NCBI GenBank assembly: GCA_964465285.1
Contig: CAYXJG010000004.1
Location: 1 to 37,327 of the forward strand
Direction of reading: 5' to 3'
DNA length: 37,327 nucleotides
Source of the DNA: an uncultured bacterium
GTDB lineage: Bacteria > Cyanobacteriota > Cyanobacteriia > CAKZMO01
Shown: positions 586 through 35,843 of the stretch, in pieces
How the letters are laid out: every line of letters starts with the position of its first letter
How positions within the stretch are numbered: position 1 is the first letter of the stretch
The notes under the pieces: model-generated
The model's database searches: none
Seen by the model: only the letters and a program-made list of their open reading frames with translations
Told to the model about the DNA's origin: nothing
Made by a program: the position numbers and the translations under genes

Positions 586-671
586 GGGACTTGCAAAAAA
601 ATAAAGGACCCGGAAAAAGCAGCGGACTACGCCCGCTGCTTTTTCCGGTATCTTTTTTAGCCGCAGATCCC
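586..671. mobile_element. Family F4 palindromic MITE-like element
   Basis: TTA|GGGACTTGC...GCAGATCCC|TAA; central hairpin CCGGAAAAAGCAGCGGAC-TAC-GCCCGCTGCTTTTTCCGG. Confidence 0.8.
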
Positions 672-814
672 TAAGTGGGTTTTGGGGGTAGACGTAGTGA
701 GTCCGCCTCCAAAAAGCGCATTCTCTGATCCTAGGCAAATGTTCAGCCATAACAAGATGAGCAATGCGCGCTTTGCTCGCCTTGCTCATCGGGTACTATC
801 GACTGGGTCAGCTA

Positions 815-1228
815 CTAGAACTGGGGTGCCATTGCCAGGGCAAGGGGCTTCATAGGCTTTGTCCTCTCTATCCTCGCCATCACAGCGGAGGGATGGGCTG
901 GCAGCGGTTCCTCAGAATTTCCAAGATAAGACAACTTTTCATCATCACTGTCTACCTGGGGATCACCATAGTCATCATCTATCTGGAGACGCTTACAGGG
1001 AATGGTGTCTGAAAGAATTGCGCTGGCCATCATGCCACAGTGAATCTCAAGCTGGGCATCTGAAACGGATTCAAAGATCAGGCGTTGACCTGGAAACACA
1101 ACACGCTCGAAATACCAGTTGGGAACATTGGTGATCCGGGCAACCTGCATTTTGCTGGTTGCATTAACGTAGCAGCAGACAATCTTATCGTTTGTACTGT
1201 TAGGAAGGGGATCAAAAATTTGAGTCAT
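815..1228 (-). CDS. DUF1830 domain protein
   Basis: MTQIFDPLP...CCYVNATSKMQVARITNVPNWYFERVVFPGQRLIFE matches the cyanobacterial DUF1830 pattern; start moved from 1330 to the ATG at 1228. Confidence 0.8.
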   Translation of the reverse strand: MTQIFDPLPNSTNDKIVCCYVNATSKMQVARITNVPNWYFERVVFPGQRLIFESVSDAQLEIHCGMMASAILSDTIPCKRLQIDDDYGDPQVDSDDEKLSYLGNSEEPLPAHPSAVMARIERTKPMKPLALAMAPQF

Positions 1229-1411
1229 AGTAATTGAGGAGCTTTTTACAAAATTATTATCTTCATATGTGAACGTTATCATCCTGCGATCCCCATAGCT
1301 GTAAAGCCGACTACCAAGTGATTCCTGCAATTCGCTGGAAATCCAGCGCTGGCATGTGAAACAAAATATTTATGAAAATCGCTTGAACTTTGAAGACTCT
1401 TTAATTTTTAA

Positions 1412-1503
1412 GGGACTTGCAAGAAAATGAAAGTACCCGGAAAAGAGCAGCGGGCGCAGCCCGCTGCTCTTTTCTTCCGGTATCTTTTTTAGCCACAGAT
1501 CCC
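1412..1503. mobile_element. Family F4 palindromic MITE-like element
   Basis: TAA|GGGACTTGC...ACAGATCCC|TAA (3-bp duplication); hairpin AAAAGAGCAGCGGGC-GCA-GCCCGCTGCTCTTTT. Confidence 0.8.
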
Positions 1504-1529
1504 TAACCAGTAATTAAGTAGGATATGAT

Positions 1530-1633
1530 GACGACTTGGCAAAGTTCTCAAATTCACAACGAAAAACTAGGGGGTTGGGGCGCGCTCAGCGCGCCCCAAC
1601 CCCCTAGTTTTTCGTGAAACTTGCCAAGTCGTG
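1530..1633 (+). mobile_element. Family F1 element, full copy
   Basis: TIR ACGACTTGGCAA/TTGCCAAGTCGT; perfect 26-bp central stem, loop TCA; TATGAT(G) direct repeat on both flanks. Confidence 0.9.
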
Positions 1634-1694
1634 TATGATGACGATGCGTTTAAGCTAGGACGATTGACTAAGGCTGAGATAGATTAGGCGAGAG

Positions 1695-3539: not shown

Positions 3540-3546
3540 GGCGGCT

Positions 3547-4320
3547 GTGACCCAACCGGATAACATTCAAGCACTTCTCCAGGCCGTTGCCCTGGGAGAG
3601 ATGAGTCCTGATCTAGCGTTTAACAAACTGCGATATTTGGATTTTGAACCTGTTGATGAATTTGCCAAAGTGGATCATCACCGGGCGCTGCGCACAGGTT
3701 TCCCAGAGGTAATTTGGGGGCCAGGAAAGACCCCAGAGCAAATTGTCAAAATTATTCAGGCGATGCGCGATCGCACCTCTGTCGTGATGGCAACCCGCAT
3801 TGAGCCAGGGGTCTATAACGTGCTGAGGACGCACCTGCCCGACCTTCGCTATTTTTCCCAGGCGAGAATTTGTGCGATCGCCCCTGATCATCCTTTGCCC
3901 GAGCACCCTGGCACCATTACCCTGGTGTCGGCGGGTACCGCTGACCTTCCGGTCGCTGAAGAAGCGGCGGTGACGGCTGAGTTATGCGGCTTTCGCGTTG
4001 ACCGATTGTGGGATGTGGGGGTATCAGGCATTCACCGCCTGCTCGACCATCGGGATATTCTTGCCAATGCCCACGTCATTATTGTGGTAGCGGGGATGGA
4101 AGGGGCATTGCCCAGCGTCGTCGCCGGGTTGGCAAACTGCCCTGTCGTTGCTGTGCCCACCAGTGTGGGTTATGGGGCTCACCTGAACGGTATTGCGCCC
4201 CTGCTGACAATGCTCAACTCCTGTGCCACAGGCATCGGCGTCGTAAATATTGATAACGGTTTCGGTGCTGCGATGATGGCAGGGCAAATTCTCCGCACCG
4301 CCGCCCGTTTACAGGCATAA
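3547..4320 (+). CDS. larB: LarB/CpmA family PurE-like protein (nickel-pincer cofactor biosynthesis / circadian phase modifier)
   Basis: AKVDHHRALRTGFPEVIWGPGKT, SAGTADLPVAEEA, VAGMEGALPSVV, PTSVGYG and VVNIDNGFGAA motifs. Confidence 0.9.
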   Translation: MTQPDNIQALLQAVALGEMSPDLAFNKLRYLDFEPVDEFAKVDHHRALRTGFPEVIWGPGKTPEQIVKIIQAMRDRTSVVMATRIEPGVYNVLRTHLPDLRYFSQARICAIAPDHPLPEHPGTITLVSAGTADLPVAEEAAVTAELCGFRVDRLWDVGVSGIHRLLDHRDILANAHVIIVVAGMEGALPSVVAGLANCPVVAVPTSVGYGAHLNGIAPLLTMLNSCATGIGVVNIDNGFGAAMMAGQILRTAARLQA

Positions 4321-4713: not shown

Positions 4714-4817
4714 CACGACTTGGCAAAGTTCTCAAATTCACAACACAAAGATAGGGGTTTGGCGCGCGCTCCGCGCGCCCCAAACCCTCATTCTGGTGTG
4801 AAACTTGCCAAGTCGTG
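4714..4817 (+). mobile_element. Family F1 element, slightly decayed
   Basis: CACGACTTGGCAAAGTTCTCAAATTCAC...GTGAAACTTGCCAAGTCGTG; loop TCC; no clear target duplication. Confidence 0.85.
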
Positions 4818-5058
4818 TAAACATCAAGGCGAGAGACATCTTTATCTTTCTAAATAGATGTAAAGAAGTGCAAAAGGTCTGCGGGTATAGAGTGACAACG
4901 CGAGGGCAAGGTGCAGAGGAGGCGATCGCCCCGTTTCAGCGGGACGCAGGGGGCATTCTACCGAGAATCTAATGATTCGCAAATCCTTGATTTACGGTTA
5001 TCATTACGGTCATTCGCACTACCGTCTAGCTTGGAGGCGTCTGCATGGAGGCACGGTC

Positions 5059-7031: not shown

Positions 7032-7123
7032 AGTAGCTTGGCATAATGAAAACCAGATGGAAAGCCTGCACCGCCTGCTGCACAGGGCTTTACGGGTTGT
7101 CTAATTGGTGATACTCATCTACT
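7032..7123. mobile_element. Family F6 element, decayed
   Basis: AGTAGCTTGGCATAAT...CTACT|TA; internal similarity to 35728-35830. Confidence 0.65.
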
Positions 7124-7125
7124 TA

Positions 7126-7172
7126 CACGACTTGGTAAAGTTCTCAAATTCACAACGAAAACATAGGAGTTT
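7126..7172 (+). mobile_element. Family F1 element, left half only
   Basis: CACGACTTGGTAAAGTTCTCAAATTCACAACGAAAACATAGGAGTTT, then similarity stops. Confidence 0.8.
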
Positions 7173-7183
7173 TGAGAATCAGC

Positions 7184-9120: not shown

Positions 9121-9222
9121 CACGACTTGGCAGGTTTCACGCAAAAACAGGGGTTTGGCGCGCGCTCCGCGCGCCAAACCCCTGTTTTTGCGTTGTGAAT
9201 TTGAGAACTTTGCCAAGCCATG
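9121..9222 (-). mobile_element. Family F1 element, full copy, reversed
   Basis: Perfect stem CGCAAAAACAGGGGTTTGGCGCGCG; (G)TTCTTA direct repeat on both flanks. Confidence 0.9.
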
Positions 9223-9261: not shown

Positions 9262-9437
9262 AGTAGCTGGTGCTCTGTCATTTCTTGAAATTAGGGTCAA
9301 TCCCGGAGGGACTTACCCTAATTTTTAATTTTGACGCTGCACTAGGCACAATTAAAAACTAGGTGTAAAACCCTGCGCCGCCCGCTGCGCAGGCGGCGCA
9401 GGGTTTACGACGGGTTTTATAATTAATTATGCTACCT
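9262..9437. mobile_element. Family F6 element interrupted by an F7 element
   Basis: AGTAG-CTGG[F7]CTAG-GCACAATTAAAA...; hairpin AAACCCTGCGCCGCC.GC-TGC-GCAGGCGGCGCAGGGTTT. Confidence 0.75.
9271..9341. mobile_element. Family F7 element (71 bp)
   Basis: CTGG|TGCTCTGTCA...TGACGCTGCA|CTAG; central hairpin with loop GGA; inverted twin at 10777-10847. Confidence 0.8.
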
Positions 9438-9439
9438 CC

Positions 9440-10654: not shown

Positions 10655-10776
10655 ATGCTTTTCCTTTGGCGATACGTCGTTTTGAAATGTGTGGGTGCGA
10701 TGGTGTTGAGATGTGATTGGGATGCCTGCTGATGAAGCCTCCAGGTGTTATGGCACTTCGTTCTGCCTCTACCGAG

Positions 10777-10847
10777 TGCAGCGTCAAAATTAAAAATTAG
10801 GGTAAATCCTGGAGGGATTTACCCTAATTTCAAGAAATGACAGAGCA
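10777..10847. mobile_element. Family F7 element, inverted relative to 9271-9341
   Basis: CGAG|TGCAGCGTCAAAATTAAAAATTAGGGTAAATCCT-GGA-GGGATTTACCCTAATTTCAAGAAATGACAGAGCA|CTAG. Confidence 0.8.
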
Positions 10848-11029
10848 CTAGTTATGTTTTTACTTTAAGAAAGCGGTGTCAACGTCGTGTGACAGCCATG
10901 TGACATCTCAACCGAGAAAAAGGGTTTAGCGTATTCACAGCACTTGTACGCTGAGGCTAAACACAGCGCCATTGAGGAGTCGGCAATGGTCTGCCCTGGC
11001 ATCATTCCCTGGCATTACCCCCTTGGCAT

Positions 11030-11181
11030 GGGTGTATCCCACACGACTTGGCAAAGTTCTCAAACCCCTATCTTTGTGTGAAACTTGCCAAGTCGTGTAT
11101 CCCACTTTTGTTGGGTAGGCGGGCTGCGCCCGCCTACCCAACAAAACAAAATTAATCAATTTGCAAAAGTGGGATGCTCCC
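11030..11181. mobile_element. Family F2 element with a nested F1 copy
   Basis: GGGTGTATCCCACTTTTG...CAAAAGTGGGATGCTCCC flanked by 8-bp CTTGGCAT duplication; hairpin TTTTGTTGGGTAGGCGGGC-TGC-GCCCGCCTACCCAACAAAA. Confidence 0.85.
11042..11097 (+). mobile_element. Family F1 element, internally deleted (56 bp)
   Basis: Both TIRs intact, TATCCCA duplication, left stem arm and loop missing. Confidence 0.85.
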
Positions 11182-11207
11182 CTTGGCATTACTGTTGAAG
11201 AGAAACG

Positions 11208-13272: not shown

Positions 13273-13486
13273 CACGACTTGGCAAAGTTCTCAAATTCAC
13301 AACGAAAAAATAGGGGTTTGGGGCGCGTGGAGCGCGCCCCAAACCCCTATTTTTTCAGCAATTCTCATTATGGAAATGTAGGCGACCTTTTTGTCCCCTA
13401 CATTTGTACAAGTGAGCGCCTATAGGGCGCGAAGTTTCCCAAAATGAGAATTGCTGCTATTTTCTCGTGCAACTTGTCAAGTCGTG
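13273..13486 (+). mobile_element. Family F1 element with a nested F3 copy
   Basis: F1 termini with TGAGAT(G/A) flanks; right arm split by the insert. Confidence 0.88.
13356..13456. mobile_element. Family F3 element
   Basis: TIR CAGCAATTCTCATT/AATGAGAATTGCTG; flanks CTATTTTTT/CTATTTTCT. Confidence 0.85.
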
Positions 13487-13502
13487 TGAGATAACCACTC
13501 GG

Positions 13503-14029: not shown

Positions 14030-14133
14030 TACGACTTGGCAAAGTTCTCAAATTCACAACGCAAAGATAGGAGTTTGGGGCGCGCTTCGCGCGCCCCAAA
14101 CTCCTATCTTTGCGTGAAACTTGCCAAGTCGTG
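14030..14133 (+). mobile_element. Family F1 element, full copy
   Basis: Perfect stem CGCAAAGATAGGAGTTTGGGGCGCGC with loop TTC; ACAATGA 7-bp duplication. Confidence 0.92.
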
Positions 14134-14285
14134 ACAATGAAAAACCAGGGCCAATCCATCTGGGACTGACATTTCTAAAATTGACAGGGCGTACGTTTGG
14201 TTGTTTGGCACAGGCGATATCTCAGCCCCTCCACGAGATTTTTAGTGTCGTATCATAGATTTGCACCACACGTTGGGTACTCTTA

Positions 14286-14382
14286 GGAGCAAGGATTAAA
14301 TAAAATCCAATTTTGGTGAAGCGGTGCGGCGATGCCGTACCGCTTCACCAAAATTTGGTTCAAACTATTTAATTCTCGTTCC
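14286..14382 (+). mobile_element. Family F5 element
   Basis: TTA|GGAGCAAGGATTAAATA...TATTTAATTCTCGTTCC|TAA; hairpin TTTTGGTGAAGCGGTGCGGC-GAT-GCCGTACCGCTTCACCAAAA. Confidence 0.82.
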
Positions 14383-14584
14383 TAAGGCTGAGTTTCTGGA
14401 AAAATTCTCCTGTGCAGAGCGTGCGCTTCTGGGAATAGTGAGCGACTGCTCTTGACCCTGAAGATTTGATCGATAAGATACGAGTAGCCTTCTGTGCTTT
14501 TGTAAAGTAGAGGTGTGGGCTAGACCTACACGTTAAGCATGTTCCATTTTCTGGCACTATTCACCACCCATCTCTCAGGAACCT

Positions 14585-17302
14585 ATGTCAGCTTCTTCCT
14601 CGCATTTGCCCAACTCTGACTCTCATCAACCTATGACCCATGAGGCGATCGCCGTTGACGCGACTGTCATTGATGTTGAAGTCGTTCCCGAAGCCGCACG
14701 CAGCACGCCACCAGCATCGACAGCGGAAGCAGCCGTACCAGACGCTGGCGAAGGCAAAGGTGGGCAGGAGAACACTCCAATGCCAAGTCAGGGAGGAGCC
14801 CTCACCACTACTAAGGGAAGCTTTTCGGCATTCTTAGCACCGCTGAAGCAGGACACCTTTAAGCAGGTGGTCACGGATGTTGAGCAAAAGCTAGAAGTGG
14901 TCAACCAAACCCTTTCAATGCTCGACTCCCTGCTAGATAGCCAGGGATTTGATGCCATCCTGGACGAGATGCTGCGGTCTATCACCCTGAAAACAGGGGA
15001 ACTTTTGAATGCTGACCGCACGACGATTTATTTGTTAGACGAAGATAAGAACGAACTGTGGTCAATCGTTGCAAAGGACGAGAAGGGTAATAACTTAGAA
15101 CTCCGGTTCCCCGCGACAAAGGGAATTGCTGGAGAATCTGCTACCTTCAAGAAGGTCATCAATATTCCTTTTGACTTCTATGATGATCCACGAGCAGTGT
15201 TCGCCAAACAAAAGGATCAGGAGATAGGCTATCGCACCTACACCATGCTAGTGCTGCCGCTACTGGATACGGAGGGAAATCTGGTTGCCGTTGTTCAATT
15301 GATCAACAAGCTTAAACAGGACTATGTTCCCCAAGCTCCCCTGGCAGAGAAGATTGATCTAAACGGCTTTACCCAGGCGGACGATGATTTATTCGACGAA
15401 TTCGCCCCCTCTATTCGCCTCATTCTTGAATCTTCGCGCTCTTTCTACAAAGCAACCCAGCGTCAGCGGGCGGCTTCAGCCTTGATGAAAGCGACTAAGG
15501 CGATGAGCCAGAGCAGCCTTGACCTGGAAGAAACCCTGAAGCGGGTCATGGACGAGGCGAAGGAACTCATGCAGGCGGATCGTAGTACCCTCTGGCTGCT
15601 AGACGAGGAGAAGGGGCAACTGTGGACAAAGATTCCTATTCAAGGGCAGCTCCAGGAAATCCGCATTCCCAGGGATGCGGGATTTGCTGGACAGGTTGCC
15701 CAGACCGGGGAACCCGTGCTGATTCCCTTTGACCTGTATGACCACGAGAATGCAGACACTGCTAAAAGCACCGATAAGAAGACAGGCTACCGCACCTGCA
15801 GCATGTTGTGTATGCCTGTGTTCAATGCAAAGGACGAATTGATTGGCGTGACGCAGTTGATCAACAAAAAGCGCCAGGGTGATTACCCCAACTATGATCC
15901 GGCTGACTGGCCTGATGCACCTGACTGCTGGAAGGCAAGCTTCAACCGCAATGACATGGAGTTCATGAAGGCATTCAACATTCAGGCTGGGGTTGCCTTG
16001 CAGAATGCCAAGCTGTTCCAGACGGTAAAACAGCAGGAGCAGATGCAGCGGGACATTTTGCGATCGCTCTCCAATTCTGTCCTCTCCACGGACAAGGAAG
16101 GGCGCGTCATCGCTGCCAATGAAAGCGCCCTACAGCTTCTAAATCTCCCTCCGGAAATCTCCATCGCAGGGCAGCATGTCAGGGATCTCATTAACATCGA
16201 GGAACGGAGCTTTGCTGAGTGCATTGACAGTGCCCTCCATCCCCAGAAAAAGCAAGACCGGGAGCAGTATTATCCGGAGCAGACCCTTGTATCGAAACCG
16301 GAGAATGCTCAGGCAGGCGAGCAGCACAGCATCAACCTGTCCATTAACTCTATTACCAACGTGGAAGACGCCAGTAATGTCCACGGGGCCCTAGTGGTGA
16401 TGGATGATATTAGCGATGAAAAGCGGCTGAAAAGCACCATGTACCGCTACATGAGCCAGGAAGTGGCGGAACAGCTTCTGTCCTCCGGGGAAGTGCGGCT
16501 GGGGGGCGATCGCAAGGACGTATCGGTGCTCTTCTCAGATATCCGCAGTTTTACCACTATCGCGGAGAGCATGGACGCCGAAGAACTGGTAATGATGCTA
16601 AACGACTACTTTGAGCTGATGGTGGATGCCGTTCTGGAACACAAAGGCACCCTCGACAAGTACATTGGGGATGCCATCATGGCCGTGTTTGGCTCTCCCC
16701 TGAAGCTAGAAGACCACGCCTGGCGATCAGTGCAGACCAGCATTGAAATGCGTCATCGGCTAGAACAGTTTAATGGCGATCGCCAACGCTGTAATCTGAT
16801 GCCCATCAGCATTGGCATTGGCCTCAACTCAGGTAACGTCATCAGTGGCAACATTGGCTCTAGTAAGCGCATGGAGTTTACGGCTATCGGCGATGGCGTT
16901 AACCTGGGTGCGCGGCTGGAAGGAGCAACCAAGCAATACGGCTGCGATATTGTGATGAGCGAAAACACCTATGAGCCCTGTAAGGACAAGGTTTGGGTGC
17001 GAGAGCTAGACCGCATTCGCGTCAAGGGTAAAAATAAGCCCGTTGGTATTTATGAACTGGTGGCATTGAAATCGGAAGAGGTTCCTGCCCGGCGTATTGA
17101 GCAGATTGAACGCTACCATCGGGGCAGGGAATTCTATCTGGCACAAAAGTTTACCAAGGCAATGGGGGCATTTGGCGGCATTCTGGAAGACATTGACCGC
17201 AACGACAAAGCGGCCCAGGTACAGCTCAGGCGTTGTCAACACTGGCTTGAAAATCCGCCCACCGGTGACTGGGATGGGGTGTGGTCGCTCACGGAGAAAT
17301 AG
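14585..17302 (+). CDS. cyaB: Class III adenylate cyclase, GAF-GAF-PAS-cyclase-TPR (CyaB1-like)
   Basis: Two GAF domains with QLINK...F...D motifs, PAS, FSDIRSFTT, DKYIGDAIMA, FTAIGDGVNLGARLE, WDGVW tail. Confidence 0.92.
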   Translation: MSASSSHLPNSDSHQPMTHEAIAVDATVIDVEVVPEAARSTPPASTAEAAVPDAGEGKGGQENTPMPSQGGALTTTKGSFSAFLAPLKQDTFKQVVTDVEQKLEVVNQTLSMLDSLLDSQGFDAILDEMLRSITLKTGELLNADRTTIYLLDEDKNELWSIVAKDEKGNNLELRFPATKGIAGESATFKKVINIPFDFYDDPRAVFAKQKDQEIGYRTYTMLVLPLLDTEGNLVAVVQLINKLKQDYVPQAPLAEKIDLNGFTQADDDLFDEFAPSIRLILESSRSFYKATQRQRAASALMKATKAMSQSSLDLEETLKRVMDEAKELMQADRSTLWLLDEEKGQLWTKIPIQGQLQEIRIPRDAGFAGQVAQTGEPVLIPFDLYDHENADTAKSTDKKTGYRTCSMLCMPVFNAKDELIGVTQLINKKRQGDYPNYDPADWPDAPDCWKASFNRNDMEFMKAFNIQAGVALQNAKLFQTVKQQEQMQRDILRSLSNSVLSTDKEGRVIAANESALQLLNLPPEISIAGQHVRDLINIEERSFAECIDSALHPQKKQDREQYYPEQTLVSKPENAQAGEQHSINLSINSITNVEDASNVHGALVVMDDISDEKRLKSTMYRYMSQEVAEQLLSSGEVRLGGDRKDVSVLFSDIRSFTTIAESMDAEELVMMLNDYFELMVDAVLEHKGTLDKYIGDAIMAVFGSPLKLEDHAWRSVQTSIEMRHRLEQFNGDRQRCNLMPISIGIGLNSGNVISGNIGSSKRMEFTAIGDGVNLGARLEGATKQYGCDIVMSENTYEPCKDKVWVRELDRIRVKGKNKPVGIYELVALKSEEVPARRIEQIERYHRGREFYLAQKFTKAMGAFGGILEDIDRNDKAAQVQLRRCQHWLENPPTGDWDGVWSLTEK

Positions 17303-17392
17303 GGATTAAATAAAATCGAATTTTGGTGGAGCGACGCGACATTGCCGCGTCGCTCCACCAAAATTTGGTTCAAATTATTTAATTCTCGTTCC
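17302..17392 (+). mobile_element. Family F5 element abutting the cyclase stop codon
   Basis: GGATTAAATAAAATCGAATTTTGGTGGAGCGACGCG...TATTTAATTCTCGTTCC|TTA; same orientation as 14286-14382. Confidence 0.82.
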
Positions 17393-17476
17393 TTAGAAGC
17401 CTTGATTTGGCAAAGCCTGATGTACAATCACAGCAAATATTGTGTTGGACAACCATGTTGCTAGGAGCTTAGGCCA

Positions 17477-17836: not shown

Positions 17837-17940
17837 TACGACTTAGCAAATTTCAGGCAAAAATAGGGGTTTGGAATGTGCAGAGCGCGCCCCAAACCCC
17901 TATTTTTGCGTTGTGAATTTGAGAACCTTGCCAAGTCGTG
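17837..17940 (-). mobile_element. Family F1 element, reversed, partly decayed
   Basis: TACGACTTAGCAAATTTCA...GAGAACCTTGCCAAGTCGTG; flanks TTTATT/TCTATT. Confidence 0.85.
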
Positions 17941-19464: not shown

Positions 19465-19591
19465 AGCCGGGTGTCCAGTAATGGGGTAATTTCTGAAAGT
19501 ATAGCGAGGTGCAAACTGATGAAGCATACCCAGGATTGTTTGTGTGGCGGCAGGCATAACCAACGCCTGCATCCAAGGCAAGGTTAAAGAC

Positions 19592-19670
19592 AATCAAATT
19601 TTGATAAAGTCGTGGAGCACTGGCGCGCGGCTCCTCCAAAATTGGGTTCAAATGATTGAATTCCCGTTTT
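19592..19670 (+). mobile_element. Decayed family F5 element
   Basis: CCAAAATTGGGTTCAAATGATTGAATTCCCGTT resembles the F5 right arm; hairpin eroded. Confidence 0.55.
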
Positions 19671-19845
19671 TGATGCCTCATAAAATGTAACGAAATATGT
19701 GCTCTCTTGCTTTGCGAAAGGCAGCAACAATCTGCAACAGTCGCTATATTAACCAGAGCATTAGGTTGCGGGAACACTAGGTTGCGGGAACACTAGCGTC
19801 AGTTGAATTTTTAGTTGGATTTAAGTAAGCCCACGTTTGGTCTAC

Positions 19846-21674: not shown

Positions 21675-21796
21675 ACCTGAGTTTGGATTAAGCGATTTTT
21701 GGGGGCGGACGCAGTGCGTCCACCCCCCAAAACCGCATTCTCTCGTCCGTGACGCGGAGGACAGAATGCAGTTTTGAGCTTATCCCGAGTTGACGT
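21675..21796. mobile_element. Family F8 element
   Basis: TA|ACCTGAGTTTGGAT...ATCCCGAGTTGACGT|TA imperfect TIR enclosing two hairpins; a further end-like AACATGAGTTCG follows at about 21805. Confidence 0.55.
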
Positions 21797-21871: not shown

Positions 21872-21915
21872 CACGACTTGGCAAAGTCCTCAAATTCACA
21901 AGGAAAAAACAGGGG
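21872..21915 (+). mobile_element. Family F1 element, left half only
   Basis: CACGACTTGGCAAAGTCCTCAAATTCACAAGGAAAAAACAGGGG. Confidence 0.8.
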
Positions 21916-22892: not shown

Positions 22893-22995
22893 CACGACTT
22901 GGCAACGTTCTCAAATTCATAATGAAAAATAAGGGTTTGGGGCGCACTCCGCGCGCCCCAAACCCTTATTCTTGCCTGAAACCTGCCAAGTCGTA
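22893..22995 (+). mobile_element. Family F1 element
   Basis: Both TIRs present, stem variant AATAAGGGTTTGGGG, loop TCC; no clear duplication. Confidence 0.85.
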
Positions 22996-25459: not shown

Positions 25460-25567
25460 TGCCACTGCAACATCATGTATATCCAGCGATTAGAATGACG
25501 ACATAGATTGTCATCATTGAGTGCAGGCATAGACAAGCGATCAGTGCTTAGAAAAATGAGGCATCTG

Positions 25568-25795
25568 CAGCAATTCTCATGATGGAAGTTTAGGGGCAAA
25601 CACGACTTGGCAACGTTCTCAAATTCACAACGCAAAAATAGGGGTTTGGGGCGCGCGGAGCGCGCCCCAAACCCCTATTTTTGCGTGAAACTTGCCAAGT
25701 CGTGGGCAAAGATGTCCCCTGAGGCCGCCTTTTTACCCCTAAATCCATACACGTGAGTTGCCCATAGGGCGCGATTCCCAACATGAGAATTGCTG
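25568..25795. mobile_element. Family F3 element with a nested F1 copy
   Basis: GGCATCTG|CAGCAATTCTCAT...ATGAGAATTGCTG|GGCATCTG, perfect 8-bp duplication. Confidence 0.9.
25601..25704 (+). mobile_element. Family F1 element, full copy
   Basis: GGCAAA 6-bp duplication; perfect 26-bp stem; loop GGA. Confidence 0.93.
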
Positions 25796-25870
25796 GGCAT
25801 CTGGAACTCAGTTGTGATAATCTAAGAACTCGCGCTATACTAGAGACCGCGCTATCCTGAATAAGAACGA

Positions 25871-26017: not shown

Positions 26018-26121
26018 AACGACTTGGCAACGTTCTCAAATTCACAACGCAAAAATAGGGGTTTGGGGCGCGCGGGTCGCACCCCAAACCCCTATTTTTG
26101 CGTGAAACTTGCTAAGTCGTG
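26018..26121 (+). mobile_element. Family F1 element
   Basis: Near-identical to 25601-25704 with a mutated hairpin apex. Confidence 0.88.
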
Positions 26122-27169: not shown

Positions 27170-27271
27170 CATGACTTGGCAACGTTCTCAAATTCACAAT
27201 GAAAACATGGGCTTAGGGCGCGCGGAGCGCGCCCCAAGCCCATGTTTCTTCGTGAAACTTGCCAAGTCGTG
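27170..27271 (+). mobile_element. Family F1 element between the two permease genes
   Basis: Stem variant AAACATGGGCTT/AAGCCCATGTTT, loop GGA. Confidence 0.87.
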
Positions 27272-28332: not shown

Positions 28333-28436
28333 CACGACTTGGCAACGTTCTCAAATTCACAACGCAAGGGTAAGGGTTTGGCCCGCGCGGAGCGAGCCCC
28401 AAACCCTTATTCTTGCGTGAAATTTGCCAAGTCGTA
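28333..28436 (+). mobile_element. Family F1 element
   Basis: ATGAGGT 7-bp duplication; loop GGA. Confidence 0.88.
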
Positions 28437-28459
28437 ATGAGGTAAAGAGTCATAAATGA

Positions 28460-28521
28460 AGCAGAGCGGCATCGCCGCGCCGCTCTACTAAAATTGAGTT
28501 CAAATTATTACTTCTCGCTCC
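28460..28521 (+). mobile_element. Partial family F5 element overlapping the 3' end of the pentapeptide gene
   Basis: GCGGC-ATC-GCCGCGCCGCTCTACTAAAATTGAGTTCAAATTATTACTTCTCGCTCC|TAA. Confidence 0.7.
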
Positions 28522-29146
28522 TAAGTTTTGTCCCAACCGTGCAGGCATCCACCAAGCTGGTGCCGCTCAAGTCCGTACCATCTAGGTCGGCACAGAGTAA
28601 ATTGGCACCGTTGAGATTGGCTCCGGCAAGATTGGCATTCCTCAAATCTGCTTCTTCCAGGTTTGCTTCCGTAAGAATAGCCCCCTGGAGATTAGCCTGA
28701 CTCAAATTGGCACCGCTCAGGTTAGCATTGCTGAGGTTTGCGCCGCGCAGGTCAGCCCCCCGGATGTCAACGCCTTCTAAGTCAACGCCCATAAGGTTGG
28801 CACCGCTGAGGAAAGCAGCGGCAAGGCTGGTGTTGCGGAGGTTCGCCTGCATCAGGTTTGCTCCCTTGAGGTTTGCCCCCCGCAGATCTGCCTCTGACAA
28901 ATCGGTTTGCATCAGGTTTGCCCCTGGAAAATTAGCCCGCAGGTCGCAGTTGAGGAACTTGCATCCAGTTAAGTTCGCACCATCAAACCGCGTGCCGTTC
29001 AACCGGGCATGGCTCAGGTCTGCTCCAGTCAGAATAGCTCCAGATAGATTAACGCGGCTCAGATCTGCATGGGTGAGGTCTTCATCTTCCAGGTTGGCAC
29101 CTGCAAGGTGGATGACCTTGCCAGCCCGAATGTCATCAATATCCAT
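28508..29146 (-). CDS. Pentapeptide repeat protein
   Basis: Near-continuous A(N/D)Lxx repeats over about 190 aa. Confidence 0.95.
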   Translation of the reverse strand: MDIDDIRAGKVIHLAGANLEDEDLTHADLSRVNLSGAILTGADLSHARLNGTRFDGANLTGCKFLNCDLRANFPGANLMQTDLSEADLRGANLKGANLMQANLRNTSLAAAFLSGANLMGVDLEGVDIRGADLRGANLSNANLSGANLSQANLQGAILTEANLEEADLRNANLAGANLNGANLLCADLDGTDLSGTSLVDACTVGTKLRSEK

Positions 29147-29186
29147 AAAAATAAAAAACGATTGCTAAAACCAGCCTAATCCTACA

Positions 29187-29286
29187 AGTAGGTGAACACA
29201 ATCAATTACAAAACCCGTAGAGTCTTGGGCCGCCCGCGCGGCAGGCAGCGCAGGGTTTTACGGGTTTTTAATTGTGCCAAGCTACT
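29187..29286. mobile_element. Family F6 element, reversed and decayed
   Basis: AGTAGGTGAACACAAT...TTAATTGTGCCAAGCTACT|TA with remnant CGCAGGGTTTTACGGGTTTT arm. Confidence 0.72.
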
Positions 29287-29345
29287 TATTTCAGAATCCA
29301 TGCTAAGAATCAAATGGATTTGCCATGAAAGTTAATGTTTTAGAG

Positions 29346-32393: not shown

Positions 32394-32643
32394 ATCGCCT
32401 ACTGCTGGAGTCCTCCGTTTGTTATTCTGCCTCCGTTTGTTATTCTGTCTGTTGTTCTGTAGTTCAGGCATTAGTTCAGGCATTATGCCCCTCTGAGTCA
32501 TTCTGCGCGACAGTCATCTCTATATCCAAGCAAGGGGATAAAGCCCCTTGTTTAAGATCCATTGAGTCTTAAGCATAAGAAATGTTCACATATCTTTACG
32601 ATACCATCCTCATCTTGAGAACGCATCCGACATTAATCTTTGT

Positions 32644-32733
32644 CAGCAATTCTCAATTATGGAAGTTTAGGGGTTTGGGGCGCGCGGGGCGCGGGCCAAA
32701 CCCCTAGTTTTTCGTTAAACTTGCCAAGTCGTG
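32644..32733. mobile_element. Chimeric element: F3 left end fused to F1 hairpin and right end
   Basis: CAGCAATTCTCAATTATGGAAGTT-TAGGGG-TTTGGGGCGCGC...AAACTTGCCAAGTCGTG. Confidence 0.82.
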
Positions 32734-32736
32734 TGC

Positions 32737-34779
32737 CTACATACCTGCTCCCCTCTGCCAGATTTTGATGCTTTCATCGGCGCTACCACTCACAAGCTCA
32801 TGGCCCTTTGGTGAAAACGCTAGGCTGTTGACGCTCCACACGTGATTCAGAATGCACAGCCGATGGATGTGATCAGGAATGACGGGCGATCGCCCGTCCC
32901 CTTGCGCCTCTTCTTTGAGTGTTTCTCCTTCGGGTGCCAATGGGCAGTGATACCCTTCCTCGACCTGTGATGAGTTTCCTGTCTTATCTTCCAGCGACCA
33001 GATCTGTACACAGGTGTCGTCACCGCCGCTGGCAAACAACCAGGCGGCAGGACTTGCTGCAATAGAATGAATCGCATCTTTATGGGCCTGGATCGTCTTC
33101 ATGGGAACGGCCTGTTTCACGTCCCAGAAAGTCAGATCGCCATCGTCGCCGCCACTGACCATTACCCGCCAGTCGAAGCTCAGCGCCATAGCTCCAATGC
33201 GATCGCGATGACTGTGAAAGGTGTTGACCAACTCTGCTGTCCGTAAATCCCACAGGCGAATGGTTTTGTCGTAACTGCTGCTGAGGAGCGCTTTGCCGTC
33301 AGGACTGATCGATAAATCACTGATCCGGTTTTCATGGTGCCAGATGCGCTCGATGAATTCCCCCCGCTCTAAATCCCAGAATTCGATCGCTCCATTGGCT
33401 CCTCCGCTGACCAACAGGCTCCCATCAGGACTAATGGCGATCGCCGAAATCAACCACTCAGCACTAGACAGGGTGCTAATCAACGTGCGATTGCTCAAGT
33501 TCCACAGCTTGATGGTGCCGTCATCGCTGCCGCTGACCAGAGCAGTACCGTCTGGAGTGAAGTGCAGGGCGTTGACGCGATCGCCATGACCATTATGGTT
33601 CCAGAGCGATCGCCCCTCGATGGTGTGCAGTTTTGTTCCTGTTTGCAGGTTCCACAGAATAATGCGGTGGTCGGTGCTGCCACTGGCGAGCACCTGCCCG
33701 CTGGGACTCACGGCAACGGTGGTTACCGACCCCGAATGCCCCGTTAGTTGGTGGGCGCAGTACCAGGGCTGACCCCGTTCCGGTGCTGCCACCGGGGAGG
33801 GGGCTGGCGATAATGTGGGTTCTGGGGCATATCCGGCGATCGCTGCAATGTCTTTGGGAATAGCGTAGCTGAGGCGACGGCTGCGGGTGAAGTCAAGTTC
33901 CAAGGGGGGCGATCGCAGATCCTTAAGTGCTGCCGTCGCCGTGCGGTAGCGCTGCTGCACCGACCGTCGCAGCATCCGGTTCAGCACATAGGCCAACTCA
34001 TCGCTAATCGGCTCCAGCAGATAGTCCTGCCATACCCAATCATCTTGACTCACGGAAAACAACTCAAAGGGGTGCATTCCCGTAAGCAAATGCACACAGG
34101 TGACACCCAGACTGTACAGGTCGCTGGAAAACACCGCCTTGCCCATGGCCTGTTCCGGTGCCAGATATCCCGCACTGCCGATGACCGTCCCTGTCCGGGC
34201 GAGAGCCGTCCCCGTCGCCCGTTTGGCGGAGCCAAAGTCCACCAGCACCACGGGACTGTCGATAATGGGAGCAATCAGGTTTTGGGGCTTGATGTCCCGG
34301 TGAATCACCCGCCGCTTGTGGATAAAGGCGAGGACAGGCAGCAGGTCTTCGAGTAGCTGGCGAATGCCGTCTTCATCGAAGGGGCCGCCCTCTTGTAGAG
34401 CTACTTCGAAATTTTCCCCGTCAATGAACTCCTGAACTAGATAGTTGCCGTCCTCATCCTCTACATAATCCAGCAAAGCGGGAATCTGGGGATGTTCGCC
34501 CAACTCCTCCAGCCGATCAACTTCCTGGCGAAACCGTTCCAAATCCTCCGCCGGTGAATCGCTTCCGTCACCAGGAAACACATGCTTAATAACGCAGCGG
34601 GGGCGATCGGGAAACTCATCGTCAACAGCCAGATAGGTCTTGCCAAAGCCGCCCTCGCCGATGGGTTCCAGCGCCCGGTAGCGATCGCCCAGCAACAGAG
34701 AATGGCCGCAGGCTGTGCAGTAGAAGTCAGTATCGGGGTTTTCGGGCGACGGACACTCTGGGTTGAGGCAATAGCTCAT
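32737..34779 (-). CDS. Ser/Thr protein kinase with WD40 repeats
   Basis: MSYCLNPEC zinc prefix, IGEGGFGKTY, HRDIKPQN, DFG, APEQ, then about 7 GH...WD-type repeats; start moved to 34779. Confidence 0.94.
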   Translation of the reverse strand: MSYCLNPECPSPENPDTDFYCTACGHSLLLGDRYRALEPIGEGGFGKTYLAVDDEFPDRPRCVIKHVFPGDGSDSPAEDLERFRQEVDRLEELGEHPQIPALLDYVEDEDGNYLVQEFIDGENFEVALQEGGPFDEDGIRQLLEDLLPVLAFIHKRRVIHRDIKPQNLIAPIIDSPVVLVDFGSAKRATGTALARTGTVIGSAGYLAPEQAMGKAVFSSDLYSLGVTCVHLLTGMHPFELFSVSQDDWVWQDYLLEPISDELAYVLNRMLRRSVQQRYRTATAALKDLRSPPLELDFTRSRRLSYAIPKDIAAIAGYAPEPTLSPAPSPVAAPERGQPWYCAHQLTGHSGSVTTVAVSPSGQVLASGSTDHRIILWNLQTGTKLHTIEGRSLWNHNGHGDRVNALHFTPDGTALVSGSDDGTIKLWNLSNRTLISTLSSAEWLISAIAISPDGSLLVSGGANGAIEFWDLERGEFIERIWHHENRISDLSISPDGKALLSSSYDKTIRLWDLRTAELVNTFHSHRDRIGAMALSFDWRVMVSGGDDGDLTFWDVKQAVPMKTIQAHKDAIHSIAASPAAWLFASGGDDTCVQIWSLEDKTGNSSQVEEGYHCPLAPEGETLKEEAQGDGRSPVIPDHIHRLCILNHVWSVNSLAFSPKGHELVSGSADESIKIWQRGAGM

Positions 34780-35193
34780 GTATCCTAGGGTTAATGGATG
34801 ACGACTTAGAAAAGCGAGGACGACATTAATCAATCAATAATCAATCAACTCAAATCAAGGTGCTGTAGATTGAGTTGCTAAATGCACGTGATGGTTTTTG
34901 CATTTCCAAACTCACCAATCAAGTGCCACGCAGTGAGTTATTGGCAGAACATACGCAAATTCTCTCTGCTGAGAAGATTCGCTTGGATGGTGATGGATAC
35001 AGCCCGCTATCATCCAAAAATTTGCGTACAATTTTTGTACCCTCTAGGCGATCGATCGAATCAGGCACGATAGCACTGCTCATTACCTCGAATGTTCTCC
35101 TTGCATCTCCCATTGTTTAGTATATTGATGCGATACGACAACGGCTGGAAAAAAATTTGCTTGACCTTCTCCTGGTTGCCTTCCCCTGCATTA

Positions 35194-35289
35194 GGGATTA
35201 GCCAGAAAATAAAATCCGAGAGAGGAGCGGCAGGCTGAGCCTGCCGCCCCTCTCTCGGATTTTGGGTATTTTATTTTCCCGCAAGTCCC
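35194..35289. mobile_element. Family F4 element, reversed variant
   Basis: TTA|GGGATTAGC...GCAAGTCCC|TTA; hairpin AAAATCCGAGAGAGGAGCGGCAGGC-TGA-GCCTGCCGCCCCTCTCTCGGATTTT. Confidence 0.78.
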
Positions 35290-35645
35290 TTAAGGGAATC
35301 TATTGGGCTCCTGAATGTAGTGGCCTATGAATGTAGTGGCATAGTGCTCGACGGCGTAAATAGCCCCACTGTTTTTGATAGGCAGAACTCCCTGGCACAT
35401 AAAGAATCCCCATTCTGCCTTCATCCTTCTGACTTCTGACTTCCGATACTCGTGGGTGGGACGCTCTTTGCGCGCCCCGCTCACCAAGTAAAATCTACTC
35501 GGTGAACAAGCTAGAGCACTGGAGCAAAGGATTGAGCCACATAAAACACACTGGCCACTAATAAATCGATTAGTAAATAGATGATTAAAAACAGGCATCA
35601 ATGGGGAATACACTAAAGTGGTTCTTGCTTAGGAGCGCTTACTTA

Positions 35646-35843
35646 GGAACGAGAATTCAATAACTTGAACCAAGCTTTAGTGATGCGGCGCGGCATCGTC
35701 CCGTCGCGCTACTAAAATTGGACTTTAAGTAGCCTGGCACAATTAAAGACCAGATGTAAAACCCTGCGCCGCCTGCGCAGCAGGCGGCGCAGGGTTTTAC
35801 GGGTTTTATAATTAACTGTGCTCGCCTACTTATTTAGTCCTTG
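35646..35843 (-). mobile_element. Family F5 element, reversed, with a nested F6 copy
   Basis: TTA|GGAACGAGAATT...AAAATTGGACTTTA[F6]TATTTAGTCCTTG. Confidence 0.75.
35728..35830. mobile_element. Family F6 element (103 bp)
   Basis: TA|AGTAGCCTGGCACAATTAA...TTAACTGTGCTCGCCTACT|TA; perfect stem GTAAAACCCTGCGCCGCCTGC with loop GCA. Confidence 0.85.

Follow-up and report, generated by a model that had tools for sequence, protein, structure and literature searches.

Loop inversion and arm-to-arm copying of changes in the palindromic cores of MITEs of a mat cyanobacterium

The genome of this mat cyanobacterium contains thousands of small non-coding mobile elements belonging to at least nine families, and their long palindromic cores undergo a DNA-level process in which the loop is inverted and changes are copied from one arm to the other. 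We newly found that the loop occurs both ways round in eight families, that it flips between otherwise identical F1 copies, and that rare changes are mirrored across the stem. On balance we favor, with some confidence, the explanation that the elements are type II DDE MITEs of an ordinary kind (about 80 to 125 nt, non-coding, and having only TIRs in common with autonomous insertion sequences [ISs]), and that inversion and arm conversion in their palindromic cores arise by a generic process resembling template switching.

The window analyzed here comprises an entire contig (37 kb) from a cyanobacterial MAG assembled from short reads. The profile search of the window returned 38 rows, representing 36 distinct element loci of nine MITE families (Table 1). 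Thus, the short mobile palindromes of a preliminary description (about 30 elements in at least eight families) are real and lie where it had placed them. An inverted-repeat search gave 37 pairs in total, and among the 25 pairs listed, many had arms of 21 to 28 nt, 95 to 100% complementary, with a spacer of 1 to 7 nt; direct repeats formed at least 60 families. The MITE nature of the elements is also backed by nested insertions inside the window, and the F1 copy at 11037..11097 has a 7-bp duplication, TATCCCA, as read from the sequence. Empty sites, for which the preliminary description had called, do exist in relatives: in all four relatives retaining both flanking genes, the gap that F1 fills at 27171..27271 is unoccupied. 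In a correction to the earlier description, family H adds a ninth family, one that has no central hairpin.

Table 1. Elements located in the window
Feature	Position	Strand	Evidence
Family A MITE, right half	1..53	+	profile 55-105 of 105; truncated by contig start
Family A MITE with 16-bp stem and TWA target duplication	582..677	+	profile match
Partial family E element with only the first hairpin	672..731	+	profile 9-68 of 113; direct-repeat family
Family A MITE	1407..1508	+	profile match
Full-length F1 MITE with perfect arms of 28 nt	1531..1633	+	inverted and direct repeats, profile match
F1 MITE, full length	4715..4817	+	direct repeats, profile match
Family C MITE, TA-flanked	7032..7126	+	profile match
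F1 MITE, left half only	7127..7174	+	profile 1-48 of 103
F1 MITE, full length, reverse orientation	9121..9220	-	inverted repeat, profile match
Family D MITE, CTAG-flanked	9264..9348	-	profile match
Family C MITE	9342..9439	+	inverted repeat, profile match
Family D MITE	10770..10855	+	inverted repeat, profile match
F1 MITE, hairpin mostly deleted, within left end of F2 copy	11037..11097	+	direct repeats, profile match
F2 MITE (7-8 bp target duplication family), left TIR split by F1	11095..11183	+	inverted repeats, profile match
F1 MITE split by nested F3 MITE at 13354-13458	13274..13495	+	inverted and direct repeats, profile match
Full-length F1 MITE with perfect arms of 27 nt	14031..14133	+	inverted repeat, profile match
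Family B MITE, TWA	14282..14388	+	inverted repeat, profile match
Family B MITE, begins at stop codon of ORF 14585-17302	17295..17398	+	ORF list, inverted repeat, profile match
F1 MITE, reverse orientation	17838..17939	-	profile match
Family B MITE, diverged	19580..19674	+	direct repeat, profile match
Full-length family E element with two hairpins	21681..21793	+	profile match
F1 MITE, left part only	21873..21915	+	profile 1-43
F1 MITE	22894..22994	+	inverted repeat, profile match
F3 MITE containing nested full F1 MITE (25602-25704)	25564..25803	+	inverted repeat, profile match
F1 MITE	26019..26121	+	inverted repeat, profile match
F1 MITE, gap unoccupied in relatives	27171..27271	+	inverted repeats, profile match, relatives' gaps
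F1 MITE, 7-bp target duplication ATGAGGT	28334..28435	+	direct repeats, profile match
Family B MITE, right two-thirds	28456..28527	+	profile 37-109
Family C MITE	29184..29287	-	inverted repeat, profile match
Chimera: F3 left terminus with F1 hairpin and right arm	32647..32748	+	F1 profile 15-103
Family A MITE, diverged subfamily	35190..35294	+	inverted repeats, profile match
Family H MITE, CTAG ends, without central hairpin	35340..35455	+	profile match
Family B MITE	35640..35731	-	profile match
Family C MITE, perfect 21-nt arms	35727..35835	+	inverted repeat, profile match

Genome-wide, the numbers of de-duplicated loci and full-length copies were as follows: F1, 1309/804; A (TWA), 454/276; B (TWA), 481/242; C (TA), 328/238; F3, 305/148; F2, 93/66; D (CTAG), 79/48; E, 44/26; and H (CTAG, hairpinless), 81/45. 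The nine profiles, among which I_1_60 is merely the right half of family A, cover 5.1% of the assembly. As had been claimed, ends and target duplications differ by family, the latter being judged against shuffled pairings of flanks. Among 487 copies of F1, the flanks matched as an exact 6-mer in 24% and as an exact 7-mer in 18%, compared with 0 to 0.2% after shuffling; T was at position 1 in 65/89 and A at position 7 in 68/89. The 8 bp attributed to F2 was found in 13% of 30 copies, but 7 bp was commoner (37%), and for F3, to which 8 to 9 bp had been attributed, 9 bp was found in 48% of 123 copies. TWA matched at both sides in 75% of family A (shuffle, 34%) and in 45% of family B (shuffle, 21%). 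TA flanked 101/166 copies of family C, and families D and H had CTAG flanks, the shuffle control being uninformative for C, D, and H because their site is fixed. Family E, with two hairpins, is located within a longer repeat, since its flanks are conserved.

Full-length parent ISs for F1 and F3 were found in the same genome. The single-copy F1 parent (G000:C154:2362-3859, 1498 bp) has perfect 18-bp TIRs equal to the F1 termini, a right end matching the F1 left arm over about 24 nt, and, like F1, a T-N5-A target duplication of 6-7 bp. Its 448-aa ORF matched NF033540 IS701 (E=1.5e-35 and 123 bits, the cut-off being 150 bits) and PF13546 DDE_5 (45 bits; cut-off, 27), by which it is classified as an IS701-family IS; counting against this, the duplication of F1 is longer than the 4 to 5 bp or so of IS701. 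Among eight related transposase loci in other genomes, four had the 13-nt terminus or a one-base variant at both ends (L081-L083 and L085) and two further loci had the terminus at one end (L084 and L088); L081 has a 7-bp and L082 a 6-bp target duplication. The F3 parent (C59:12887-14307, 1421 bp, single-copy) encodes a weakly IS4/IS701/ISAs1-like DDE protein different from that of the F1 parent, which, together with the differing target duplication types, supports the earlier proposal of several unrelated transposases. The assembly yielded no parent IS for A, B, C, D, E, F2, or H; judging from the type of duplication, the TWA, TA-flanked, and CTAG-flanked families may be moved by IS5/Harbinger-like and IS630-like enzymes. 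Both parents have only the terminal 16 to 24 nt in common with their MITE, and therefore the hairpins were not inherited from the parent IS, contrary to one reading that the preliminary description had left open. Indeed, the hairpin was absent from both parents and from five related IS copies in other genomes, the best hairpin-to-IS match being 8 nt (E=0.84). The central hairpin of F1 and F3 is thus a MITE-specific core and not part of the IS.

The eight hairpin families have consensus stems of 16 to 27 bp, a 3-nt loop, and a 5'-C...G-3' closing pair, which accords with the shared design first described (a stem of about 17 to 26 bp with a 3-nt loop), H excepted; the cores, compared by eye, have no sequence in common between families. 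In all eight, the loop was found both ways round relative to the asymmetric arms, at about 50:50 in five (counted on correctly oriented copies, for which the two strands differed by 45 bits on average). F1 had GGA 190/TCC 175, TGA 74/TCA 67, and TTC 26/GAA 21, and the counts were 129/94 in A, 73/63 in B, 80/71 in C, 17/16 in D, and 31/22 in F2. F3 (TGA 76/TCA 24, and 17/13) and E (10/5 and 14/5) were skewed, so flipping is not saturated everywhere. A non-stem control in family B gave 171/0. Both orientations were present inside single stem haplotypes, and in F1 orientation was random at every backbone distance (same/flipped, 4/6 at d=0, which is identity at all 100 other positions, and 30/27 at d=1), with no trend out to d=12. 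In the relative G001 (GTT 12/AAC 9), the asymmetric outer stem holds its orientation while the loop flips. Near-loop mismatches were linked to loop orientation at pairs 2, 6, and 7 (p=0.019, 0.039, and 0.0069, which fail Bonferroni correction for 18 tests), and at a distance of at least 13 linkage was found in 0/11 tests. The minor loop alleles TGA/TCA and GGC/GCC equal GGA/TCC after the palindrome gains one pair. This distribution across copies suggests that loops flip in situ.

The arms, too, show exchange. In 8/8 families, compensated cells were more numerous than in any of 20 shuffles or any slid register (F1, 1380 versus a maximum of 296). Rare both-sided complementary pairs, observed/expected, were 101/2.05 in F1, 13/0.4 in A, 8/0.65 in C, 6/0.45 in D, 6/0.05 in F3, and 5/0.55 in B, and mirrored rare changes beat every shuffle in six of the eight families, these mirrored counts being inflated by small subfamilies because the shuffle controls ignore relatedness. 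The rare-variant rate per site was the same in the stem (0.0125) and the unpaired arm (0.014). For rare alleles on opposite arms, 33 to 53 nt across the loop, 47 mirrored pairs were observed versus 0.96 expected, by which phasing across the element center is largely kept. Stem mismatches had no wobble bias (G:T+T:G, 426; A:C+C:A, 395), and the constraint therefore acts on DNA rather than RNA. Beside the loop, at pairs 1 to 7, rare changes were mostly unpaired (9 mirrored versus 122), an excess that a simple perfecting model does not predict.

In the explanation that we favor, each family would be mobilized in trans by its own DDE transposase, F1 by the 1498-bp IS701-family IS and F3 by the 1421-bp IS. 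In the core, the 3-nt loop and a variable portion of the inner stem are inverted against outer arms that are asymmetric and stay fixed, and changes are copied from one arm to the other. Both probably result from template switching during replication or repair at perfect inverted repeats, or from an equivalent exchange of strands through a cruciform. No dedicated system would be needed, as palindromic DNA would behave in this way generically, and the common design (GC-rich tip, minimal 3-nt loop, and C...G closing pair) would be the end state of a perfected palindrome. In excerpts of published work, template switching perfects quasipalindromes in E. coli (PMC7202029) and explains stems that are perfect, compensatory changes spanning several bases, and inverted loops (PMC8794818), footprints that the MITEs share (perfected palindromes, compensatory multi-base changes, and loop inversion), and in plastid DNA small hairpin-associated inversions are described as pervasive (PMC12371153). 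Template switching leaves unexplained the very presence of a hairpin in the most abundant families; as a speculation, the central fold-back might be a hinge bringing both ends of about 100 bp of stiff DNA together for any transposase.

We consider it rather unlikely that the loop is reset at each mobilization, by gap repair through the palindrome after excision or through a fold-back single-strand intermediate in each copy made, with resident copies fixed thereafter. Such a reset predicts the random orientation seen between identical F1 backbones, and it is also favored by mirrored rare changes being common even though resident stems decay at the unpaired-arm rate. However, very fast flipping in situ yields the same pattern, and no step at the element center is known for DDE cut-and-paste or copy-out chemistry. 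In addition, quasipalindromes are described, in an excerpt of PMC7202029, as mutational hotspots of template switching. Mis-threading of near-identical repeat centers between loci in the short-read assembly, leaving only the family-level 50:50 as real, would cover part of the copy-level patterns (independence of loop and backbone, and saturation at d=0). Of 1266 contig ends, 674 are no more than 150 bp away from an element, Logan contigs of the source runs are broken inside every element, and some copy-level associations could be blurred because the element center is about 50 nt from unique sequence. Nevertheless, the in-phase rare alleles and the near-loop linkage (uncorrected p) both need correct phasing across the center and therefore count against this artifact, which we regard as quite improbable; besides, an assembled loop-arm joint needs its k-mer in the reads, and by this reasoning both orientations exist in DNA.

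The preliminary description had proposed a common amplification step or host factor acting on the hairpin, as a candidate for an undescribed system. A common process stands, in that loop inversion is shared by 8/8 families and mirrored changes by 6/8, but nothing shows that it amplifies the elements or depends on a dedicated host factor, and the reading favored here is a generic mutational process, not an amplification system or a new enzyme. A dedicated host- or element-encoded factor, resolvase-like or HUH-like, driving shared amplification would fit one design with the same 5'-C(NNN)G-3' closing pair in eight families with unrelated ends, hairpins not inherited from the two parents found, and the extreme MITE load. 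Telomere resolvases (ResT/TelK) are an enzyme class acting on palindromic DNA, and the genome encodes one ResT/TelK-like protein (855 aa; telomere-resolvase catalytic domain, 64 bits). Its gene, however, is present in 11/31 genomes, patchily among relatives, without tracking F1: G003 and G014 have F1 without a match, whereas G008, G010, and G012 have a match without F1. Only ordinary MITEs adjoin it, and cyanobacterial hairpin-telomere replicons, described in an excerpt of PMC3558466, give it an ordinary role. Neither a Y1/HUH (RAYT-like) nor a TnpB gene was found in the 97%-complete assembly, every family has target duplications of the staggered-cut DDE type, two have matching IS parents, the cores lack a common sequence, and hairpinless H still reached 81 loci, all of which makes such a factor improbable. 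Core-only loci accounted for 1/1309 F1 loci; the hairpin core is not independently mobile.

Selection at the RNA level, in which the hairpins would be retained for a host function as intrinsic terminators or stabilizing stem-loops and the common design would reflect that role, seems very improbable. MITE transcripts have been discussed as possible terminators (PMC10969869, in excerpt), several copies score as terminator-like, and sites with a stem followed by a T-run numbered 34 versus 20.1 +/- 5.1 expected in 1-20000 and 25 versus 19.4 +/- 4.8 expected in 17328-37327, many being MITE hairpins scored in several registers. Against this, wobble pairs are not tolerated, both loop orientations are equally frequent, and no Rfam family matches any element. 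Moreover, F2 and the first E hairpin have a T-run upstream and an A-run downstream on both strands, and, as read from ORF and element positions, the elements lie in convergent, tandem, and divergent gaps alike.

The window is the entire contig C4 of a draft genome of 633 contigs and 5.45 Mb (completeness, 96.97%; GC content, 51.4%), in which the cyanobacterial HIP1 octamer GCGATCGC is present 7264 times. The sequence was found in three runs, all from a single metagenome study of a microbial mat (word shares of 0.93, 0.75, and 0.48), indicating that the genome is a metagenome bin; it derives from short reads, and associations at the level of single copies could blur if reads were mis-threaded between copies. 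Inverted-repeat and direct-repeat scans revealed short palindromic elements by the dozen between the genes of the window, and when the window was mapped on the genome, 31 of its segments proved to be repeated, some of them with over 1500 matches. We made profiles of nine families (F1, F2, F3, A, B, C, D, E, and H) from the window copies and searched them against the genome. Loci were de-duplicated and oriented, since nhmmer lists each near-palindrome once per strand; the orientation of F1 was well determined, with a mean of 45 bits between strands. The window itself holds 36 distinct element loci.

The consensus lengths of the nine families range from 81 to 123 nt, below the MITE ceiling of about 600 bp, and the elements are non-coding, the repeats spanning overlapping open reading frames (ORFs) in places. 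Terminal inverted repeats (TIRs) were present in all nine families when both ends were compared, with 91% consensus cells in the 12-nt TIR pairs of F1. The consensus folds of eight families contain a central stem of 16 to 27 bp with a 3-nt loop (two stems in E), and the closing pair is 5'-C...G-3' in every hairpin family; the consensus fold of H is without a central hairpin. Thus, the preliminary description of short hairpin MITE families was right in substance as to target site duplications (TSDs), stems, and 3-nt loops, and only its TSD lengths needed small corrections, from 8 bp to 7 to 8 bp in F2 and from 8 to 9 bp to 9 bp in F3. Family E has two long hairpins in tandem, flanked by conserved AACCTGA on the left and TGACGTTA on the right; since this conservation extends beyond the profile, the real repeat unit is longer than defined.

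Families of short elements, their abundance in a de-duplicated genome-wide profile search, their flanks, and rare alleles that pair across the stem
Family	Loci	Full-length copies	TSD or flank	Rare two-sided pairing alleles (shuffled expectation)
F1	1309	804	TSD 6-7 bp, T-N5-A preference; well above shuffled controls	101 (2.05)
A	454	276	TSD TWA, middle base same on both sides; above shuffled controls	13 (0.4)
B	481	242	TSD TWA, middle base same on both sides; above shuffled controls	5 (0.55)
C	328	238	TA-flanked; fixed flank, duplication indistinguishable from fixed target	8 (0.65)
F3	305	148	TSD 9 bp; above shuffled controls	6 (0.05)
F2	93	66	TSD 7-8 bp; above shuffled controls	2 (0.25), weak
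H	81	45	CTAG-flanked; fixed flank, duplication indistinguishable from fixed target	
D	79	48	CTAG-flanked; fixed flank, duplication indistinguishable from fixed target	6 (0.45)
E	44	26		2 (0.9), weak

We conclude that the elements are MITEs of type II, belonging to IS701-like and to other DDE transposons, and that their load is unusually high. Type II MITEs are defined, in a MITE review, by similarity to an insertion sequence (IS) that is confined to the TIRs and by movement in trans by that IS (PMC10969869); such TIR-confined similarity was seen for F1 and F3. The prokaryotic members (Correia, ERIC, Nezha, and MaeMITEa-h of Microcystis) are likewise short, non-coding, intergenic, and multi-copy, with TIRs, TSDs, and stable stem-loops, and have only the TIRs in common with the mobilizing IS. 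They differ from the elements described here, which have near-perfect palindromic cores with 3-nt loops in both orientations. Microcystis NIES-843 also has eight co-resident MITE families, but the scale differs: 517 copies and 1.8% there versus 1309 loci in one family and at least 5.1% here (PMC2779907). Copy numbers given in the MITE review reach 711 at most (PMC10969869), again versus the 1309 loci of F1. The profiled families together occupy at least 277 kb (5.1% or more of the assembly), and, as far as our literature search reached, this MITE load is among the heaviest cited for any prokaryote.

Such a load explains the poor assembly of genomes of this sort. Of the 1266 contig ends, 674 fall no more than 150 bp from an element of the nine families, so that the counts and coverage are lower bounds; fragmentation of this genome is largely due to MITEs, and the true copy numbers are above our counts. 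In one run (X1), the summed contig depth for window positions 9001 to 29000 reached about 24,000 over the F1 core versus about 10 to 12 over unique DNA, which suggests that the mat contains far more F1-like sequence than the bin, contig depth being distinct from copy number and other organisms being possible contributors. The strands of F1 loci were skewed in the window (13 of 15 on the plus strand) and on three further contigs (C3, 10:3; C66, 7:0; C77, 6:0). Genome-wide, the over-dispersion of F1 orientation per contig was not significant (chi-square, 64.1; 48 df; P = 0.06), and F1 orientation did not correlate with GC skew.

Mobility of these MITEs is supported by three kinds of sequence comparison, i.e., nested insertions, an unoccupied gap in relatives, and unequal abundance among congeners. 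Nested copies within the window (F3 in F1, F1 in F3, and F1 in an F2 terminus) bring their own TSDs. The preliminary description had proposed a search for empty sites in close relatives, and for one gap occupied by F1 the orthologous gap was without F1 in four of four relatives; the comparison concerns F1 absence alone, as intergenic DNA does not align at about 78% identity (the nearest genomes compared have about 70 to 79% identity in coding DNA). First-look candidates numbered 1334 versus 321, 71, and 52 among congeners, and F1 with its hairpin was found in three of three genomes of the genus, two of four of one sister genus, and none of nine from three further genera in the family. Both flanks are the same in just one pair of F1 copies, inserted at the same position in two H copies on contigs C139 and C52. 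The stems of these two copies are quite different, which suggests that they are probably independent insertions at one site, i.e., a hotspot rather than shared descent.

A parent IS of F1 was identified on contig C154. It is 1498 bp long, with perfect 18-bp inverted termini that equal those of F1 base for base. The match between its right end and the left arm of F1 extends over about 24 nt, and both ends of the IS carry the left-arm form of F1. Its intact single ORF (448 to 453 aa) encodes a DDE transposase that matched NF033540 (IS701; E = 1.5e-35; 123 bits, under the curated 150-bit cutoff) and PF13546 (DDE_5; 45 bits, over the 27-bit cutoff). The size of about 1.5 kb, the one DDE ORF, and the short TIRs accord with the IS701 family, whereas the TSD of 6 to 7 bp with a T-N5-A preference differs from the 4 to 5 bp usual in that family. 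Eight related transposase loci (62 to 86% identity) occur in other genomes, in Leptolyngbya, Leptolyngbyaceae, Thainema, and Acaryochloris records. Six of the eight have the 13-nt terminus, intact or with one base changed, at both ends in L081 to L083 and L085 and at one end in L084 and L088, and the clean 7-bp TSD of L081 and the 6-bp TSD of L082 have the same signature as the F1 MITE.

The parent IS of F3, on contig C59, is 1421 bp long and encodes a different DDE protein, weakly IS4/IS701/ISAs1-like. Both parent ISs are single-copy in the assembly, and the hairpin is absent from both of them; between the F1 hairpin and its IS, no match was better than one of 8 nt (E = 0.84). In this draft, which is without short contigs, no parent of A, B, C, D, F2, or H was found near the matches to DDE_Tnp_1, DDE_3, DDE_Tnp_1_2, and DDE_Tnp_4, nor was a parent of E found in the assembly. 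Long pairs of termini considered as candidate parents were mostly two separate MITEs bracketing host genes, and among these pairs the F3 parent alone was real.

We further characterized the central hairpins by reading the loop orientation against the outer arms, which are asymmetric and about 99% conserved among the 804 oriented F1 copies. Each F1 loop occurred in both orientations, namely, GGA 190 and TCC 175, TGA 74 and TCA 67, TTC 26 and GAA 21, AGA 22 and TCT 12, and GCC 18 and GGC 16. Every hairpin family had both loop orientations, which were about equally frequent in A, B, C, D, and F2 and unequal in F3 and E. A short control sequence of B outside the stem gave 171 to 0. Single stem haplotypes contain both loop orientations, and among GGA/TCC copies the orientation was random at each backbone distance up to d = 12 (same/flipped: 4/6 at d = 0, 30/27 at d = 1, and 75/59 at d = 2). 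In the related genome G001 (loops GTT 12 and AAC 9), the asymmetric outer stem of a subfamily is fixed in orientation while the loop flips, and hence the inverted tract lies inside the perfect inner palindrome. The minor F1 loops TGA/TCA and GGC/GCC are exactly what results when the palindrome grows one pair further into the GGA/TCC loop.

Asymmetric mismatches 2 to 7 pairs from the loop were linked to loop orientation (P = 0.019, 0.039, and 0.0069), and none of 11 tests at 13 or more pairs from the loop showed linkage; given 18 tests, the linkage near the loop is suggestive only. The symmetry of mismatch types (A:C versus G:T and so on) was dropped as evidence of flipping, since strand-symmetric mutation gives the same result. 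No locus was seen in both loop states; Logan contigs of the three source runs end inside every element, so that the loop state of individual loci is unreadable there. The loops seen most often in F1, D, A, F2, and C, when read from one strand, are GGA, GCA, or GAA closed by C...G, and B, E, and F3 do not fit this pattern; 5'-C(GNA)G-3' triloops form unusually stable DNA mini-hairpins.

The stems varied while largely keeping their pairing. Columns of the 27-bp F1 stem vary by up to 31%, yet just 2 to 5% of mid-stem pairs are unpaired, and 186 copies have perfect stems. We counted 1380 compensated cells in F1, and in all eight hairpin families the compensated cells exceeded all shuffles and all slid registers, in controls that ignore relatedness among copies. 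Wobble-type mismatches (426) were no commoner than A:C types (395), indicating no RNA-type tolerance, and rare variants per site were equally frequent in the stem (0.0125) and in the unpaired arm (0.014), indicating that the stem is not shielded from mutation. Nevertheless, of the 505 rare alleles in the stem, 221 lie opposite a base that pairs with them, and the excess of mirrored alleles is beyond two independent point mutations; concerted arm-to-arm copying can give such an excess. Rare mirrored pairs lying 33 to 53 nt apart across the loop numbered 47 versus 0.96 expected, which implies that phasing across the element center was largely kept despite the short-read bin. In the GC-rich tip of F1 (pairs 1 to 7 from the loop), 9 alleles were mirrored and 122 unpaired, and about half were mirrored in pairs 8 to 23; the tip seems to be exempt from arm-to-arm conversion or more mutable.

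Replication template switching at the palindromic core would both invert the loop and copy changes from arm to arm. In published accounts, template switching makes Escherichia coli quasipalindromes "perfect or more perfect" (PMC7202029), and in RNA genes it gives inverted loops, perfectly paired stems, and compensatory changes of several bases (PMC8794818); hairpin-associated small inversions are described as pervasive in plastid DNA (PMC12371153). As in those accounts, the arms here are made complementary, more than one base changes at a time, and the loop turns round between perfect arms. Because loop inversion, perfected stems, and compensatory changes are the published footprints of template switching, our analysis favors a generic DNA-level process as the most likely cause of the hairpin dynamics. 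The published cases concern orthologues and reporter genes, whereas here there are thousands of paralogues in one genome, and the process appears saturated in five of the eight families. We found no earlier report of loop flip-flop in bacterial MITEs in the literature searched; the saturated flip-flop with arm-to-arm conversion across eight unrelated families, read from paralogous copies, is a new observation. Template switching does not account for the presence of a hairpin in all of the most abundant families, nor for the hairpinless H remaining at 81 loci. It may be conjectured that the central fold-back serves a stiff 100-bp element as its hinge, and F1 with its intact single-copy IS701-family transposase is a tractable pair for testing whether it aids transposition of about 100 bp.

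The preliminary description had favored a common step or host factor acting on the hairpins. Such a shared hairpin-dependent step would process the palindromic core at each mobilization and boost copying of very short elements; the agent may be an intermediate, either folded back or cruciform, or else a host enzyme, for instance a chromosomal ResT/TelK-like protein. This idea draws on the random loops of otherwise identical copies, on hairpins foreign to the parent ISs, and on their recurrence in families with at least four kinds of transposase, and if true it would mean an undescribed host-level amplification route on which several unrelated MITE lineages converge, but we regard it as improbable. 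Of the two kinds of gene that the preliminary description named, HUH/Y1 (RAYT-like) and protelomerase-like, the former was not encountered: the Y1/HUH transposase profile (PF01797) had no match in the 96.97%-complete assembly, while the control matched in 6 of 14 genomes, and TnpB was not found in the 97%-complete assembly either. The latter does exist, as an 855-aa ORF with a ResT/TelK telomere-resolvase catalytic domain (PF16684; 64 bits; Synechococcus elongatus matched as a control) and a long, coiled-coil, low-complexity tail rich in Lys, Ser, and Thr. Its homologues, however, occur in 11 of 31 related genomes, discordantly with F1, and only ordinary MITEs adjoin the gene; compared with solved protelomerases, the protein gave no sequence match, its sole match being a coiled-coil one, myosin. 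Cyanobacterial hairpin-telomere replicons offer an ordinary role for this gene (PMC3558466), which could mark a linear replicon or prophage.

REPINs, which are mobilized by RAYT, resemble the elements in being symmetric long hairpins of about 100 nt with conserved ends, a compensated variable middle, and hundreds of copies. The elements differ in having TSDs and DDE-type IS parents in a genome without a RAYT/Y1 gene, and to our knowledge REPINs have neither TSDs nor such parents. Compensated hairpins in a mobile repeat are also described for REPINs (PMC3116915). The F1 core was core-only at 1 of 1309 loci, which is internal to a contig, and does not behave as an independently mobile module. 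In this it is unlike the Nostoc SDRs of Elhai and co-workers (2008), which are reportedly very short cyanobacterial repeats associated with hairpins and, in some cases, nested in MITE-like contexts. No Rfam family matched any element. Some copies of F1, A, B, C, and D have a terminator pattern (GC-rich stem with a T-run right after it), and in F2 and the first E hairpin the T-run is upstream; a side effect on transcription is thus possible, judging from these motifs, but a terminator role cannot explain the orientation-independence or the missing wobble tolerance.

Should the generic, template-switching reading be right, this genome would be a natural experiment on perfect-palindrome evolution with thousands of replicates, allowing loop inversion and arm conversion to be estimated family by family without orthologues. 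It would also bear on the long-standing question of how stems gain compensatory changes, and covariation in a repeated hairpin would be no proof of RNA function.

Coordinates of features in the window and on other contigs of the genome
Feature	Location	Strand	Remarks
F1 in F2 terminus	window 11037		nested insertion
TPP riboswitch	window 11221-11348	+	RF00059, 61 bits
ORF	window 11647-13176		adjoins TPP riboswitch
F3 in F1	window 13354		nested insertion
E element	window 21681-21793		example of two tandem hairpins
Overlapping ORFs	window 25590-25907		example spanned by repeats
F1 in F3	window 25602		nested insertion
tRNA gene	window 25871-25944	+	RF00005, 62 bits
ORF	window 28508-29146	-	contains direct repeats
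Direct repeats	window 28657-29099		spaced 15 nt
F1 parent IS	G000:C154:2362-3859		
F3 parent IS	C59:12887-14307		
ResT/TelK-like ORF	G000:C349:2540-5104	-	
F1 copy in H	G000:C139:2083-2185		pair sharing both flanks
F1 copy in H	G000:C52:13466-13568		pair sharing both flanks

Besides the MITEs, the window contains a TPP riboswitch between an F2 MITE and an ORF, with an F1/F2 MITE pair directly upstream. The tRNA gene lies between an F3::F1 composite and an F1 copy and is 93 to 100% conserved in 30 of 30 relatives. The direct repeats within the minus-strand ORF have the periodicity expected for a pentapeptide-repeat protein.
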